From: Naegleria gruberi
Lineage: Eukaryota
NCBI GenBank assembly: GCA_000004985.1
Contig: GG738848.1
Length of the DNA stretch: 64,000 bases
Strand: one strand, 5' to 3'
The position numbers and the translations under genes are program-made. Each line of letters begins with the position of its first letter. Position 1 is the stretch's first letter. Below are positions 12,417-45,671 of this stretch, piece by piece. Below the pieces are notes generated by a model that made no database searches, had not been told where the DNA came from, and saw only the letters and a program-made list of their open reading frames with translations.

Positions 12417-13847
12417 TCACTTCACATTGAGACAACAAGTAGTTTTACAAATACCCCTTATCTCTACCCTAATAGTTGAAATATCACTCTTAACTTCTTT
12501 AATTTCATAATTCATAATGTTACTCTCACTTTTAATATTATGGATATCAGTTTGCATGTTATCAATATCAGTTTTCATATTGCTAATATCATTCTTCATA
12601 CTTTTGATATCAGTCTTCACCTTAGTAATATCAGTCTTCATACTATCCACGTTATTATTAATTTTTTTGATATCATTCTTCATATTGTTGATATCTGTCT
12701 TCATATTGTTGATATCTGTCTTCATATTGTTGATGTCAGTCCTCACAGTGTTGATATCATTCTTCATATTGTGGACATCATTCTTAATATTATTAATATC
12801 GGACTTCATGCTATCAATATTAGTATTAAATTCAGACTTGGTCATGATTTCGTTTCGTATTTTCCTTAGTTCCTCCATAACATCTGCTAGGGACAAATTA
12901 CCACTTTTCACTTGTTCTCCCATTTTTTTCTTGTTAGAAACCTCAGCAACACCATCAGTTAATTTCTCTCCCTCAAGAATGATTTCCATCTCTGATTCAG
13001 CTAGAATGATTTCATCGGAAGCATTGTTATTGTCTTCATTCATTGAATGAGCAATAGAAGTATTCAGCTCTGTTTCTTCCATTACCATAACTTCATTGAT
13101 GTTTTCTTGATTAATAATATCGGGAGTTTCTTCCATTACATTAATTTGATTATTATCATCAGATGTGATAGGAGGATTTCTAATCTCTGGTTCTTCGTTC
13201 AGGTCAAACATAATTACATTTTGGGTATTAAGAGTAAAGCTATTAATATTAGCATTATTCTCCATCTCTGATTCAGTTAGAATAATTTCATCGGAAGCTT
13301 TGATATCCTCTTCTTTCTTGGAATGGGTGTTGGAATTAAGAGTGCTGCTATTCATACTTGATTCAGTTCTAGACTTTGATTTCTTAGAACGAGGCTTCTT
13401 TGTTGATTTGGCTTTCCTTGGAGCAACCATTTCAACAAAATCCTTCATCATTTGCAATAGTTCTTTCTCTCCAGAAAGGTGGGTGATTTCATGGAGAAAG
13501 TTGTACTTTAACTTGCTCTCATCATTCAATGGCTTGAGGAAATTACGAAATTCAGTCTTATCAATGTGATGGAAACTAAAATCATCCAACATGCTACAAA
13601 TAACATTCAAGAATGCCTCCTTGCTTCTCAATAAAACCCAAACTCCATTAGATTTCAATAAGAAGATAGGATGGTTCTTGTTCGCTAAATTATTCATGAA
13701 TTTTTCGAGTGGAAACTCGTTGAAATCATAACCCTTAACCAACACTCTGATTAGAGCAGGTGGAATGAAATCTCCAGTATCTCTATCTTTACTAACAAGA
13801 GTTTTGATAATGAGTTTCTTATCTTTATCAGAAGGCTGTGAATGCAT
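12417..13847 (-). CDS. Hypothetical protein (476 aa) with an acidic middle region and a C-terminal array of tandem heptad repeats (xDIxNMK), probably coiled-coil.
   Basis: ORF from the track. C-terminus reads NDVHNMKNDINTVRTDINNMKTDINNMKTDINNMKNDIKKINNNVDSMKTDITKVKTDIKSMKNDISNMKTDIDNMQTDIHNIK, encoded by 21-bp DNA repeats. Confidence 0.55.
   Translation of the reverse strand: MHSQPSDKDKKLIIKTLVSKDRDTGDFIPPALIRVLVKGYDFNEFPLEKFMNNLANKNHPIFLLKSNGVWVLLRSKEAFLNVICSMLDDFSFHHIDKTEFRNFLKPLNDESKLKYNFLHEITHLSGEKELLQMMKDFVEMVAPRKAKSTKKPRSKKSKSRTESSMNSSTLNSNTHSKKEEDIKASDEIILTESEMENNANINSFTLNTQNVIMFDLNEEPEIRNPPITSDDNNQINVMEETPDIINQENINEVMVMEETELNTSIAHSMNEDNNNASDEIILAESEMEIILEGEKLTDGVAEVSNKKKMGEQVKSGNLSLADVMEELRKIRNEIMTKSEFNTNIDSMKSDINNIKNDVHNMKNDINTVRTDINNMKTDINNMKTDINNMKNDIKKINNNVDSMKTDITKVKTDIKSMKNDISNMKTDIDNMQTDIHNIKSESNIMNYEIKEVKSDISTIRVEIRGICKTTCCLNVK
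12540..12830. repeat. Tandem 21-bp coding repeats (about 13 units) that encode the heptad array of the 12417..13847 gene.
   Basis: Repeated ttcatattgttgatatctgtc-like units are visible directly. They also produce spurious plus-strand ORFs (12517..13050, 12540..12869). Confidence 0.7.
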
Positions 13848-14294
13848 TTTTTTTTGAGAGAAGTTTAAGCGCCTTCTTTTCAGTGTTCTTTTCCGTTCTT
13901 ACTTGACTTGAATACAGGTGGTTGTTCAGTAGATTGAAATCCTTCAAGTTGATGAAGAGTGATGAATACATCAAGAATGGTATTAAGAAAGAGTAACCTT
14001 AACACCTTGTGGATTAATAACAATGTTAACCAACTTCTTTTCTTCAATATGCTTAGTAGAAAATAATACTGAATATTGGAAGAAGTTAACCATTTCGAAG
14101 CTTAATGAAACAATTCAATTGAGAAGGAAATCTGTGACTCAAATGAAATAATTGAAAAATAAAATGCAACTCCCAAAAATTGAGGTTTTCGAGATATCGG
14201 ATATAGATCGATTCTGTGTTTCATCCTTCATTTTGTATCTCGATCAAGCATATATTGGTAAAAAATCCATCAAAAAATTTATGTCATGGTTTCT

Positions 14295-15015
14295 CTAAAA
14301 CAACAATAATTGTTTCATTTCACTTATGTATTTGGATCCTTTATCACTAATTTCATTGTCAGAAATATTAAGTGATGTTAATTGTTTCATTTCACTTATG
14401 AATTTGGCTCCTTCATCACCAATTTCATTGTTATATATATCAAGTGATATCAATTGTTTCATTTCACTTATGAATTTGGCACCTTCATCACTAATTCGAT
14501 TTACACTAATATTAAGTGATGTTAATTGTTTCATTTCACTTATGTATTTAGCTCCCTCATCACTAATTTGATTGTAATAAATATCAAGTGATGTTAATTG
14601 TTTCATTTCACGTATTAATTTGAGTTGGTCTAAAGAGTCAAACAAATTTCCAGAAACTTTAAGATTAACAATACTATTCATGATTATCAACTTGAGTAAA
14701 TACAGCGAATTTGACACCTGACACATTTTCCAATGACTTGTGACTCTTACAGCTGCAGATTTAACACTTTCAGCAACTGCAAATGATAAATCTCCAGCAC
14801 TATATCTTGCCTCAGTCAATGAAAAGAATGATTTACGAAACAAGCTTGTCATTCCTTCCTTTTCTCACAATCGAATAAAACTTATTTCTCAAAGCATCTG
14901 ATTTCTTTCTAAGCATCGATTGACCACGTTTAGCACTATTCAAACGATTCTCCATTAATTGTAAGGTCATTCTATTCGGAACAACAGCCAATCTATTATT
15001 AATAGTAGCAGACAT
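14295..15015 (-). pseudogene. Chimeric / fragmentary locus. A V-type ATPase subunit D (VMA8-like) N-terminal fragment of about 115 aa is frameshifted once and then fused in frame to F-box/LRR-family repeats (5 LRR units), with no V-ATPase D C-terminal half.
   Basis: ORF 14833..15015 = MSATINNRLAVVPNRMTLQLMENRLNSAKRGQSMLRKKSDALRNKFYSIVRKG, matching the V-ATPase D N-terminus (FPTRMTL..MK.KLKGA.KGHSLLKKKSDAL..RFR). ORF 14295..14852 begins MTSLFRKSFFSLTEARYSAGDLSFAVAESVKSAAVRVTS, matching V-ATPase D (MQTAAFSLAEVSYATGENIGYQVQESVSTARFKVRA). It then switches to LKLIIMNSIVNLKVS...ISEMKQLTSLDIY..., which is identical in style to the 34999 and 43446 LRR genes. There is a +1 frame change between the two ORFs at about 14850. 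Confidence 0.55.
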
Positions 15016-15527
15016 TTTTTTCTGTTTTGAATTTCATCTCTTTGAATTTTTGTGAATTTAAAGTTTGGCATGTATAATTCAAAATTCTCTAAAATTTAGC
15101 AACAACTCTTTCGATCAACTTGCTGAGGTGCGCCACCAATGCACAAAACTTCCAAATTAACTGGACTTGAGCAAGAATGGCAATTCAGAAAAAGATGCCT
15201 CAATTGAAAGAACCAACTCTTTTGAAATTAGCTATTAAAGTTATCCATCCTTTAGATGATTGGAGTTATCACTGCAAATCTGAGAGAATTCATCAATAAA
15301 GTACTCGAACAAGGTCCTTGTATTTTATCCTAATTATTCCTTTTTATGTTCATCACTATAATAAATTATTGGATATTCTATATGCAACACAAGAAGGGGA
15401 AGTTTTATTTACAGAGAGGCATATTGTCTTGTGAGTTAATTACATTGTTTAGAGTGGGAGAGATCACTAATTGAAGTGACATATAAAGTTTGTTCAATAC
15501 TCATTGACCAACCAATAATAATCATAT

Positions 15528-15815
15528 TTAGAATGGACTGCCAGTCAAATAAAACTTGACACCAGCAACAGCACCTGCAATAGTAACACCAACTGCAACC
15601 CCAACTGGTCCACCAATGGCACCAGTTGCAGCTGCAGCTTGCATTGTAGAAACGGCACTTCCTGCAGCTACACCACCACCTGAAGCAATTGCAGTTGTGC
15701 TCATCCAAGCAGCTGCCCAAGAACCAGCAGCAATGCCAGCTTTAGTAAAACCAAACCAAGAAACGGCTTGAGTAAATCCAAGGTATGTTAATGTTCCTGC
15801 AGCAATGGAGGTCAT
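15528..15815 (-). CDS. IFI6/IFI27 (interferon-alpha-inducible 6-16 / ISG12)-family small Gly/Ala-rich membrane protein (95 aa).
   Basis: GFTKAGIAAGSWAAAWMSTTAIASGGGVAAGSAVSTMQAAAATGAIGG closely resembles the Ifi-6-16 family core (GFT.AGIAAGS.AAKMMS.AAIANGGGVAAGSLVATLQS.GAAG). The antisense ORF 15556..15771 is a GC-skew artefact. Confidence 0.6.
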   Translation of the reverse strand: MTSIAAGTLTYLGFTQAVSWFGFTKAGIAAGSWAAAWMSTTAIASGGGVAAGSAVSTMQAAAATGAIGGPVGVAVGVTIAGAVAGVKFYLTGSPF

Positions 15816-16244
15816 ATTATCAATTTTTTTTTAAATTAATATTTGAGAGATGTGTGTACTGTGTAGTTTAAAGGATTTTCAGATGTGGATATTTTTGGAA
15901 AGGGTTGGGAATTCTCAACCTTGGGTTGGGAAGTGTGATATTGATTGACACAATGCATAGAGATTTTAAAATCAACGATAATGAAAGAAGCGCCAATCAG
16001 TTTACAAGAGTGCACTGTATCATTTTCTGTGATGGAGGAGCAAGTGTTTCTGTTCTAGCTCACCAAAGAATTTACCTTGACTCTTGCCATAGTTCAAATT
16101 GTTTCAAATCAATCTTTACAAGAAGTCGTAGTACAACATGTTTGTTGTAATCCGTGCGGAAGCACTAACCAAGTAGATGTCTCTATTTTGCAAGGATTCT
16201 TGTTTGCAGAATAGATCATTCAAAAAAACACAAACAAATTCACC

Positions 16245-34998: not shown

Positions 34999-36240
34999 AT
35001 GAGCAAACGAAAAAGACAAGATTTTGAAAATCATCATCGCTTAATTAATTCGGAGGAAATATTCACTAACAATTTTAATAATAATATGGAAGAGAAAGCA
35101 AAAAAGAGTGTGAAATTCCAACAAGAAGAAATATTTTCAGATGATGTTTGTTTTGAAATAATCTCCATGATTGATGATTCATGGTTTATTTTAAATAATT
35201 GTTGTTTAATTTCAAAACAATTCTTTAATGTGATCAAGGAACGTTCAAAACTTGTTATTCAATTTAACAAAAAATTTACAGAGAAACGAGTTGAATTATG
35301 CATGAAAAGTCAATTCATGAATAGTATTGTTAATCTTAAAGTTTCTCGTTGGTTGCTTGACTCTGTAGACCAACTCAAATTCATAAGTGAAATGAAACAA
35401 TTAACATCACTCGATATATATAGCAATCGAATTGGTGTAGAAGGAGTTAAATATATAAGTGAAATGAAACAATTAACATCACTTAATATTTCTGAAATTG
35501 AAATTAGTGATGAAGGAGCCAAATATATAAGTGAAATGAAACAATTAACATCACTTTATATACATAATAACGAAATTGGTGATGAAGGATCCAAACACAT
35601 AAGTGAAATGAAACAATTAACATCACTTAATATTGGTTGTAATGAAATTAGTGATGAAGGAGCTAAACATATAAGTGAAATGAACCAATTGATATCGCTT
35701 AGTATTGGTTACAATCGAATTGGTGATGAAGGATTCAAATATATAAGTGAAATGAAACAATTAACATCACTCGATATTACTGACGATGAAATTGGTGATG
35801 AAGGAGCTAAATATATCAGTGAAATGAAACAATTAACATCACTAAATATTGGTTTTAATGAAATTGGTGATGAAGGAGCCAAATACATCAGCGAATTGAA
35901 ACAATTAACATCACTTGATATTTCTGAAACTGAAATTAGTGATGAAGGAGCCAAATATATAAGTGAAATGAAACAATTGATATGGCTTACTATTGGTTAT
36001 AATGAAATTAGTGACAAAGGAGCTAAATACATCAGCGAACTGAAACAATTAACATCACTCGATATTACTGACAATAAAATTGGTAATGAAGGAGCCAAAT
36101 ATATAAGTGAAATGAACCAATTGATATCGCTTAATATTGGTTACAATCGAATTGGTGATGAAGGAGCCAAATATATAAGTGAAATGAAACAATTGACATC
36201 ACTAAGACAAATCAGTTTAGGATTTTACTGTAATAATTGA
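34999..36240 (+). CDS. F-box-like plus RNI-type leucine-rich-repeat protein (413 aa) with about 12 tandem 24-aa LRRs (xISEMKQLTSLDISxNxIGDEGAKY).
   Basis: The N-terminus FSDDVCFEIISMIDDSWFILNNCCLISKQFFNV is F-box-like. It is followed by near-identical 72-bp repeat units. A paralog of 43446 and of the 14295 fragment. Confidence 0.75.
   Translation: MSKRKRQDFENHHRLINSEEIFTNNFNNNMEEKAKKSVKFQQEEIFSDDVCFEIISMIDDSWFILNNCCLISKQFFNVIKERSKLVIQFNKKFTEKRVELCMKSQFMNSIVNLKVSRWLLDSVDQLKFISEMKQLTSLDIYSNRIGVEGVKYISEMKQLTSLNISEIEISDEGAKYISEMKQLTSLYIHNNEIGDEGSKHISEMKQLTSLNIGCNEISDEGAKHISEMNQLISLSIGYNRIGDEGFKYISEMKQLTSLDITDDEIGDEGAKYISEMKQLTSLNIGFNEIGDEGAKYISELKQLTSLDISETEISDEGAKYISEMKQLIWLTIGYNEISDKGAKYISELKQLTSLDITDNKIGNEGAKYISEMNQLISLNIGYNRIGDEGAKYISEMKQLTSLRQISLGFYCNN
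35335..36220. repeat. Tandem 72-bp coding repeat array (LRR units) inside the 34999 gene.
   Basis: Repeated gaaatgaaacaattaacatcact...ggtgatgaaggagccaaatatataagt units. They generate spurious antisense ORFs (35310..35522, 35709..35954). Confidence 0.75.
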
Positions 36241-43445: not shown

Positions 43446-44672
43446 ATGAGCAAACGAAATAGACAAGATTTTGAAAATTATCATCAATTTATTAATTCGG
43501 AGGAAATATTCACTAACAATTTTAATATTATGGAAGAGAAGGCAAAAAAGAGTGTGAAATTCCAACAAGAAATATTTTCAGATGATGTTTGTTTTGAAAT
43601 AATTTCCATGATTGATGATTCATGGTTTATTTTAAATAATTGTTGTTTAATTTCAAAACAATTCTTTAATGTGATCAAGGAACGTTCAAAACTTGTTATT
43701 CAATTTAACAAAAAATTTACAAAGAAACGAGTTCAATTATTCATGAAAAGTCAATTCATGAATAGTATTGTTAATCTTAAAGTTTCTCGCCGGTTACTTG
43801 ACTCTTTAGAACAACCCAAATTCATAAGTGAAATGAAACAATTAACATCACTTAATATTTCTGACAATCAAATTGGCTTAGAAGGAGCCAAATACATCAG
43901 TGAAATGACACAATTAACATCACTTGATATTAGTGTAAATCGAATTGGTGTTGAAGGAGCTAAATTCATAAGTGAAATGAAACAATTAACATCACTTGAT
44001 ATTAGTGTAAATCGAATTGGTGTTGAAGGAGTTAAATTCATAAGCGAAATGAAACAATTAACATCACTTGATATTTCTGACAATCAAATTGGCTTAGAAG
44101 GATCCAAATACATCAGTGAAATGACACAATTAACATCACTTGATATTAGTGTAAATCGAATTGGTGTTGAAGGAGCTAAATTCATAAGTGAAATGAAACA
44201 ATTAACATCACTTAATATTAGTGTAAATCGAATTGGTGTTGAAGGAGTTAAATTCATAAGTGAAATGAAACAATTAACATCACTTGATATTTCTGACAAT
44301 CAAATTGGCTTAGGAGCCAAATACATAAGTGAAATGACACAATTAACATCACTTGATATTTCTGTAAATCGAATTGGTGATGAAGGAGCTAAATTCATAA
44401 GTGAAATGAAACAATTAACATCACTTGATATTTGTGACAATCAAATTGGTGTTGAAGGAGCCAAATTCATAAGCGAAATGACACAATTAACATCACTTGT
44501 TATTACTAGCAATCGAATTGGTGTTGAAGGAGCTAAATTCATAAGTGAAATGAAACAATTAACATCACTTGATATTTCTGGCAATCGAATTGGTGATGAA
44601 GGAGTTAAATTCATAAGTGAAATGAAACAATTAACATCACTTAATATTAGTGTAAATCGAATTGGTGGATGA
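43446..44672 (+). CDS. F-box-like plus RNI-type LRR protein, intact part (408 aa), paralog of 34999. About 12 near-identical 24-aa LRR units.
   Basis: The N-terminal 100 aa are almost identical to the 34999 gene (MSKRNRQDFENYHQFINSEEIFTNNF...CFEIISMIDDSWFILNNCCLISKQFFNVIKERSKLVIQFNKKFT). The repeats read ISEMKQLTSLDISVNRIGVEGAKF. Confidence 0.7.
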   Translation: MSKRNRQDFENYHQFINSEEIFTNNFNIMEEKAKKSVKFQQEIFSDDVCFEIISMIDDSWFILNNCCLISKQFFNVIKERSKLVIQFNKKFTKKRVQLFMKSQFMNSIVNLKVSRRLLDSLEQPKFISEMKQLTSLNISDNQIGLEGAKYISEMTQLTSLDISVNRIGVEGAKFISEMKQLTSLDISVNRIGVEGVKFISEMKQLTSLDISDNQIGLEGSKYISEMTQLTSLDISVNRIGVEGAKFISEMKQLTSLNISVNRIGVEGVKFISEMKQLTSLDISDNQIGLGAKYISEMTQLTSLDISVNRIGDEGAKFISEMKQLTSLDICDNQIGVEGAKFISEMTQLTSLVITSNRIGVEGAKFISEMKQLTSLDISGNRIGDEGVKFISEMKQLTSLNISVNRIGG

Positions 44673-45140
44673 AGGAGTTAAATTCATAAGTGAAATGAAA
44701 CAATTAACATCACTTAATATTTCTGACAATCAAATTGGCGTAGAAGGAGCCAAATACCTCAGTGAAATGACACAATTAACATCACTTGATATTTCTGACA
44801 ATCAAATTGGCTTAGAAGGAGCCAAATACATAAGTGAAATGAAACAATTAACATCACTTGATATTTCTGCAATCGAATTGGTGATGAAGGAGCTAAATTC
44901 ATAAGCGAAATGAAACAATTAACATCACTTAATATTAGTGTAAATCGAATTGGTGGAGAAGGAGCCAAATACATCAGTGAAATGAAACAATTAACATCAC
45001 TTAATATTATGACAATCGAAATTGGTGACAAGGAGCCAAATACATAAGTGAAATGAAACAATTAACATCACTTCATATTACTAGCAATCAAATTGGCGTA
45101 GAAGGAGCCAAATACATAAGTGAAATGAAACAATTATTGT
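44650..45140 (+). pseudogene. Degenerating 3' continuation of the 43446 LRR gene: about 7 more LRR units interrupted by at least three single-base indels (frameshifts).
   Basis: ggtggatgaagg versus canonical ggtgatgaagg (+1 at about 44668). tctgcaatcg versus tctggcaatcg (-1 at about 44868). A further indel lies near 45005-45030 (aatattatgacaatcgaaattggtgacaaggagcc). The LRR reading frame hops between ORFs 43446, 44662, and later frames. Confidence 0.6.
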
Positions 45141-45671
45141 AGTTTAATAAAACTATTTTTTGATTGATTGAGATGGAAAATAATAGATTTAATAGAATCG
45201 ATCCATATCTAGAAACCTCATTGAACTGAGCTTGAAACTTTGGCTTTGATTTCTTTTGTTTCATTAAGCTTAGAAATAGTTTTTTCAAATTGCTTCTTTT
45301 ACCTTCTTGAATCATCCCTTGGTTGGATGTCATTACAGGGAGTGCCTTAGCAATCACCTTATCGGTATTACCTAGTTGGCATCAGTGGCGATGGCATCGA
45401 TAGGTTTAATTAAATTTGAAAGTGGTTGAATTTTCCTTACAATTTCGACCTCTAGATTTGTTTATCCAGGGCTATCATCCTCGTTCTAAGAAATCAAAGT
45501 TTAGATGAACAGCCAAGCATAATATCAATTTTTACAAAATATGAAACTTGCCAATTTCGAAGGAATGGGTATTCTGATAATCTTCTATCTAGAATGAACC
45601 AATGACAAGAAAATACCTATTTATTGTTTCAATTAAACCAACATTAAACCAACTACTGGTTTGCAACTCAT

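Follow-up and report, generated by a model that had tools for sequence, protein, structure and literature searches.

In the V-type ATPase, subunit D (yeast Vma8, human ATP6V1D; PF01813) contributes both its N- and its C-terminal helices to a coiled coil of the central stalk. Members of this family are full-length proteins that carry both sets of helices and are read in one uninterrupted frame. Here we describe a locus in a 64-kb window (the whole stretch analyzed, 64,000 nucleotides) of the Naegleria gruberi genome that matches the subunit D family profile above its curated cut-off, but contains only the N-terminal half of the subunit, whose reading is interrupted by two deletions that shift the frame and ended by a stop following codon 118. 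Because both terminal helices are required and the C-terminal half is absent, the fragment is unable to act as a central-stalk subunit.

The remainder of the locus belongs to a family of leucine-rich repeats (LRRs) with a 24-residue unit, which is represented in the same window by two further genes (34999..36240 and 43446..44672, referred to below by their first coordinates). These genes share with the locus the 72-bp repeat unit and a degenerate first unit, and the copy at 43446 also has the kind of C-terminal end found at the locus; in contrast, the two genes have 11.5 and 18.4 repeat units, respectively, compared with about 4.4 at the locus. The repeats are of the LRR_6 type, with ribonuclease-inhibitor-like units. 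LRR units of this type also occur in many F-box/LRR (FBXL) proteins, although an F-box N-terminal to the repeats, as in FBXL proteins, was found neither at the locus, where that region is missing, nor by Pfam in its relatives.

Partial and chimeric duplicates account for a large share of young gene duplicates in Caenorhabditis elegans and Drosophila (PMC3449122). The pseudogenes among them combine a near-identical parent elsewhere in the genome, truncation, the joining of a second gene, and disabling mutations, as found at the N. gruberi locus. We found no essential difference between these pseudogenes (PMC3449122) and the locus, which is a further instance from a heterolobosean amoeba. It is thus a new instance of a chimeric or partial duplicate pseudogene and not a new kind.

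The subunit D fragment and its parent genes

An N-terminal fragment of V-ATPase subunit D was identified on the minus strand, from 15015 down to approximately 14681. Three-frame translation showed that its reading is split into three pieces over two frames (first, second, and first again), which together extend over parent codons 1-116. The features of this part are as follows:

14866..15015, minus strand: subunit D codons 1-50 (MSATINN...FYSIV) in the first frame, identical to NAEGRDRAFT_49328
14866/14865, minus strand: deletion of ~14 nt, by which parent N51-E55 (NEIKE) is gone and one extra base is left, shifting the frame
14733..14864, minus strand: subunit D codons 56-99 (EKEGMTSLF...VRVTSH) in the second frame, with one substitution relative to NAEGRDRAFT_49328, T86A
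14733/14732, minus strand: deletion of 1 nt, the A of the parent M100 codon
14683..14730, minus strand: subunit D codons 101-116 (ENVSGVKFAVFTQVDN) in the first frame again, identical to NAEGRDRAFT_49328
14833..15015, minus strand: 60-aa ORF from the subunit D start codon, ending with eight out-of-frame codons and TAA (14835..14833)

The similarity to subunit D, which the initial annotation had proposed from the letters of the window, was upheld by profile search. A frame-corrected reconstruction matched PF01813 (ATP-synt_D) with 53.6 bits (E 3.4e-14, cut-off 25.7), covering only positions 2-100 of the 196 in the profile, that is, the N-terminal half; the 60-aa ORF by itself scored 27.1 bits. 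Over the same stretch, the fragment shared 38-41% identity with human ATP6V1D. A tblastn search found no C-terminal half of subunit D anywhere in the 64-kb window, in agreement with the absence noted earlier.

Two frame disruptions were deduced in the subunit D part by aligning the three reading frames to the parent proteins, whereas a single frameshift, near 14850, had originally been reported. Their sizes (~14 nt and 1 nt) were inferred by comparing the parent protein with the window DNA. At the first site, the window reads ATT GTG A GAA AAG GAA GGA ATG (ATTGTG-A-GAAAAGGAAGGAATG), and the parent protein (IVNEIKEEKEGM) reads I49-V50-N-E-I-K-E-E56-K-E-G-M. At the second, parent H99-M100-E101 is aligned with CAT-TG-GAA in the window (GTAAGAGTCACAAGTCATTGGAAAAT). 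Since the two deletions total 15 nt, the subunit D frame beyond both of them is the frame of the start codon again, and the first-frame reading (KSLENVSGVKFAVFTQVDN) runs on to a TAG at 14676..14674. The product obtainable from the original ATG is limited to the 60-aa peptide. We also considered an intron as the cause of the frame changes. At the first site, the frame could be restored by a single GT..AG of only 10 nt (GTGAGAAAAG), and a longer intron would excise residues that are contiguous in the parent protein; this candidate was therefore rejected.

As the initial annotation had anticipated for the case of a pseudogene, subunit D genes exist elsewhere in the genome. HMMER, run exhaustively with the exact 52 aa of the first piece as query, identified NAEGRDRAFT_49328 (206 aa) as the closest parent, with 98% identity over residues 1-51 (E 6.8e-23), and the second-best match in this search had 55% identity. 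A second N. gruberi model, NAEGRDRAFT_75597 (238 aa), falls within the 90% cluster of NAEGRDRAFT_49328. The two models are located on scaffolds of 418,085 bp (NAEGRDRAFT_49328) and 174,974 bp (NAEGRDRAFT_75597), and the chimeric locus on one of 712,659 bp. Alignment to both parent proteins showed that the copy comprises parent residues 1-50, 56-99, and 101-116, with a single substitution compared with NAEGRDRAFT_49328 (~99% identity over ~110 comparable codons) and three compared with NAEGRDRAFT_75597. This near-identity to the parent suggests that the copy is very young. The function of V-ATPase D is presumably provided by the paralogues on the other scaffolds. With two other subunit D gene models in the genome, one of them near full length, the locus has no bearing on V-ATPase biology.

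The two parent models share 97% identity with each other. NAEGRDRAFT_49328 lacks the C-terminal ~32 residues, and NAEGRDRAFT_75597 is near full length; they may be paralogues, allelic scaffolds, or a case of a truncated model. No relatives of NAEGRDRAFT_75597 were found in a metagenome scan. NAEGRDRAFT gene identifiers did not occur in the literature searched, which contained nothing relevant on Naegleria subunit D either.

The junction and the LRR part

The subunit D fragment passes into LRR sequence at a discrete point, and the reading frames and flank associated with this junction are the following:

14681..14683, minus strand: junction TCA, a 3-nt overlap that fits both subunit D (AAT CA., N116 and Q117) and the LRR gene (T TCA TG)
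14295..14681, minus strand: 3' portion of an LRR family gene, from family codon ~107 (MNSIVNLKVS...) to its own stop
14295..14852, minus strand: 185-aa ORF, 100% identical to the GenBank 'predicted protein' NAEGRDRAFT_62798 (XP_002682170, UniProt D2V188)
14088..14294, minus strand: 3' flank accompanying the LRR piece, with patchy similarity to the 3' flank of the 43446 copy (~200 nt)

When the locus was compared with the remaining window sequence by blastn, matches to both LRR genes began abruptly at 14683, corresponding to 35315 and 43756 in these genes, and continued for 376 nt at 86-87% identity. Neither blastn nor alignment of the locus revealed similarity to the in-window LRR genes upstream of this point, and the breakpoint is accordingly placed at 14683..14681, not at 14640 as first suggested. 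In the alignment, the corresponding point in the LRR family is ...KSQF-MNSIVNLKVS..., at about codon 107. Past the junction, the subunit D frame reads only two further codons, H and E (14682..14677), before the TAG mentioned above, indicating that the junction was out of frame when it was formed.

The 185-aa ORF starts at an internal methionine, M60 of subunit D, and consists of 40 subunit D residues (M60-H99), 17 out-of-frame residues (WKMCQVSNSLYLLKLII), and 128 LRR residues. Without the 1-nt deletion in its path it would not enter the LRR frame. Thus, the earlier description of the two parts as fused in frame holds for the mechanical ORF, but even there 17 subunit D codons are first read out of frame. 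The in-frame appearance of the fusion is therefore an accident of decay.

The LRR part opens with a degenerate unit, continues with four 24-aa units, and closes with a short tail (...EMKQLLLF-stop). Tandem Repeats Finder detected a 72-bp (24-aa) array at 14307..14622 with 4.4 copies and 84% matches, and LRR_6 (PF13516) matched four stretches of the ORF with 75.1 bits (cut-off 23.4). The repeats had been described as common to the 34999 and 43446 genes, and we confirmed this relationship: the arrays share 86-88% DNA identity. Over 124 codons, the LRR part is 87% identical to gene 34999 in nucleotides and 79% in amino acids (86% and 77% for gene 43446), so that it has diverged by 13-14% in DNA from its relatives in the window. 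It contains no stop or frameshift across its 128 codons. The three-taxon estimate of dN/dS for its branch was ~0.58 (0.040/0.069), similar to the 0.51-0.56 of pairwise comparisons within the family, so that decay is not visible; this estimate has too little power to separate decay from constraint, since the branch may mostly predate the fusion. Within the 3' flank, a 26-nt block (14113..14088) was 92% identical to 45256..45281, with a score of 42 against a shuffle maximum of 34.

The conserved N-terminal ~106 residues of the full-length family members are missing from the locus. The F-box label previously attached to the family was not borne out: Pfam gave no F-box match in the full-length LRR relatives at E<=0.01, and none, even at E<=10, when the N-terminal 104-106 residues of these relatives were searched in isolation.

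Two further observations concern the LRR family. Gene 43446 (plus strand) stops at 44672, and its 72-bp array runs on to ~45136, with at least three frame changes before the family-type C-terminal end (43446..45145); the array beyond 44672 represents either a decaying tail or sequence errors. In addition, the 24-aa LRR unit shares 46% identity with a protein from a metagenome-assembled genome of Legionellaceae, which suggests that this repeat type is common to amoebae and amoeba-associated bacteria.

Origin of the chimera and competing explanations

The locus is very probably a young chimeric pseudogene, in which a partial subunit D copy was joined out of frame to the tail of an LRR gene. A near-identical parent exists elsewhere in the genome, and the second segment comes from another identifiable gene at a discrete breakpoint, marked by the abrupt start of LRR similarity at 14683. 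According to this reading, codons 1-116 and at most ~100 nt of upstream sequence would have been duplicated from the V-ATPase D gene closest to NAEGRDRAFT_49328. The segment would then have entered the interior of the LRR gene, at about codon 107, through a single non-homologous junction with 3-nt microhomology (TCA, 14683..14681), and the LRR gene would have lost its N-terminal region or had it replaced. The ~14-nt and 1-nt deletions would have been gained later in the subunit D part. Such a sequence of events is consistent with DNA-mediated partial duplication and a repair process that was either non-homologous or microhomology-mediated. Because the subunit D copy loses its 3' end at the junction, no poly(A) tract could remain. 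Since the junction was out of frame from the outset, with a TAG two codons on, and was followed by two deletions, the locus is considered dead. The fusion of gene fragments and the pseudogene status that the initial annotation had put forward are supported by the subunit D parents elsewhere, the discrete LRR junction, and the two deletions.

The same end state would have been reached if a complete third subunit D copy had been resident here and had been disrupted by a recombined or inserted LRR piece, its 3' half being lost then or later. Ectopic exchange is plausible in an LRR family that has multiple copies and forms local clusters, three of the copies lying within 64 kb, and the structure by itself does not tell which partner was resident. 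Nevertheless, we found no subunit D remnant downstream of the LRR piece or elsewhere in the window, and the LRR piece has its own stop and 3' flank. Moreover, an LRR part that is 13-14% diverged and a subunit D part that is near-identical to its parent fit an old resident LRR gene and a recent arrival of subunit D. The very unequal divergence of the two parts, together with the retention of the LRR 3' end, indicates that it was probably the subunit D fragment that arrived and the LRR gene that was resident. Terminal or target-site repeats of a mobile cassette were not found; within 13850..15530, transposon-like terminal repeats were absent, with only short direct or inverted matches at chance level and the LRR periodicity, and no flanking direct repeats bracketing the subunit D fragment were seen. 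Taken together, the disruption of a resident subunit D gene is unlikely, although it deserves more weight than the explanations considered below. The earlier proposal that a mobile LRR cassette had disrupted a housekeeping copy is not supported, in view of the younger age of the subunit D part, the stop and 3' flank kept by the LRR part, and the lack of terminal repeats.

A functional new chimeric gene, in which the 185-aa ORF (or the 60-aa peptide) is expressed, possibly from a co-duplicated promoter, and works as a short LRR protein whose N-terminus is novel, appears improbable. The 185 codons are open and annotated as a protein, the LRR part is intact and its dN/dS lies below 1 (at low power), and up to ~100 nt of upstream sequence may accompany the fragment. 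However, the ORF starts at an internal methionine that is preceded by a 60-aa upstream ORF, out-of-frame read-through accounts for 17 of its residues, and its gene model is a 'predicted protein' obtained ab initio. The junction was ancestrally out of frame, the upstream ATG now yields only the 60-aa ORF, and the conserved N-terminal ~106 residues of the family are missing. In addition, NAEGRDRAFT_62798 stands alone in its 90% cluster, with no close whole-protein copy on record, and a word-index protein search, which also missed the 99%-identical parent and both family genes in the window, returned no other subunit D/LRR chimera. Slightly more improbable still is an early stage of gene birth, in which a co-duplicated subunit D promoter would drive the 185-aa ORF (a 40-residue helix fragment, a 17-residue linker, and four LRR units) or the 60-aa peptide would interfere with stalk assembly. 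If gene birth were the true reading, the 185-aa ORF would give rise to a short LRR protein that is new.

We also considered an assembly or cloning artefact, in which subunit D and LRR reads were misjoined and sequencing errors account for the frame changes. The junction borders on a repeat family, where misassembly classically arises, and a base-calling error could explain the 1-nt deletion alone. In contrast, the ~14-nt deletion and T86A set the copy apart from both other subunit D models, so that it is not simply composed of their misplaced reads. The junction lies in unique sequence, 60 nt ahead of the first 72-bp repeat unit, and the locus is interior to the 712,659-bp scaffold. We therefore regard an artefact as very improbable.

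As a young chimeric pseudogene, the locus would be a dated case, in the N. gruberi genome, of gene fragments brought together by small-scale, microhomology-type joining, with a clean breakpoint and a near-identical subunit D part. Its significance lies mainly in annotation: NAEGRDRAFT_62798 (XP_002682170, D2V188) is best regarded as an ORF that spans the junction of a pseudogene, and the database 'protein' should be re-labelled.

Surroundings and a related Naegleria contig

A metagenome contig of 5.7 kb (L001), derived from a related Naegleria, aligned to 16030..15116 of the window with 84-93% nucleotide identity. It includes the neighbouring Ifi-6-16 gene and the spacer, and carries unrelated genes from ~15116 on; the similarity thus ends ~100 nt upstream of the start codon of subunit D. 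This end point sets an upper bound on the 5' flank duplicated with the fragment and shows that the chimera is absent at that position in the relative. The corresponding feature is as follows:

15016..15116, minus strand: putative 5' flank of the duplicated fragment, ~100 nt upstream of the start codon, with an inferred boundary

By this comparison, any 5' flank that was duplicated with the fragment is probably confined to 15016..15116. Synteny with the contig is also lost on the other side of the common block, and the breakpoint at 15116 may therefore reflect a rearrangement in the lineage of the relative.

The G+C content of the window is 29-37%, in keeping with its assignment to N. gruberi. 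Upstream of the locus, 15528..15815 (minus strand) encodes a 95-aa protein of the Ifi-6-16 ('interferon-induced 6-16') family (PF06140, E 1e-14). A protein of the related contig is 95% identical to it, and the named matches are vertebrate IFI27-like proteins. Downstream, 12417..13847 (minus strand) encodes a 476-aa coiled-coil protein that is a singleton at 90% identity and whose C-terminal part contains a 21-nt tandem array (7 aa, NNMKTDI-like; ~13 units, 12535..12829).

Only the ends of an 89-aa gene of the related contig (3054..3323, minus strand) have a counterpart in the window, at 15116..15300 (plus strand). A stretch of 177 nt is missing from this counterpart, leaving a 40-aa ORF (15177..15299). 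The remnant at 15116..15300 may be a second decayed gene adjoining the chimera, or may reflect an intron difference.
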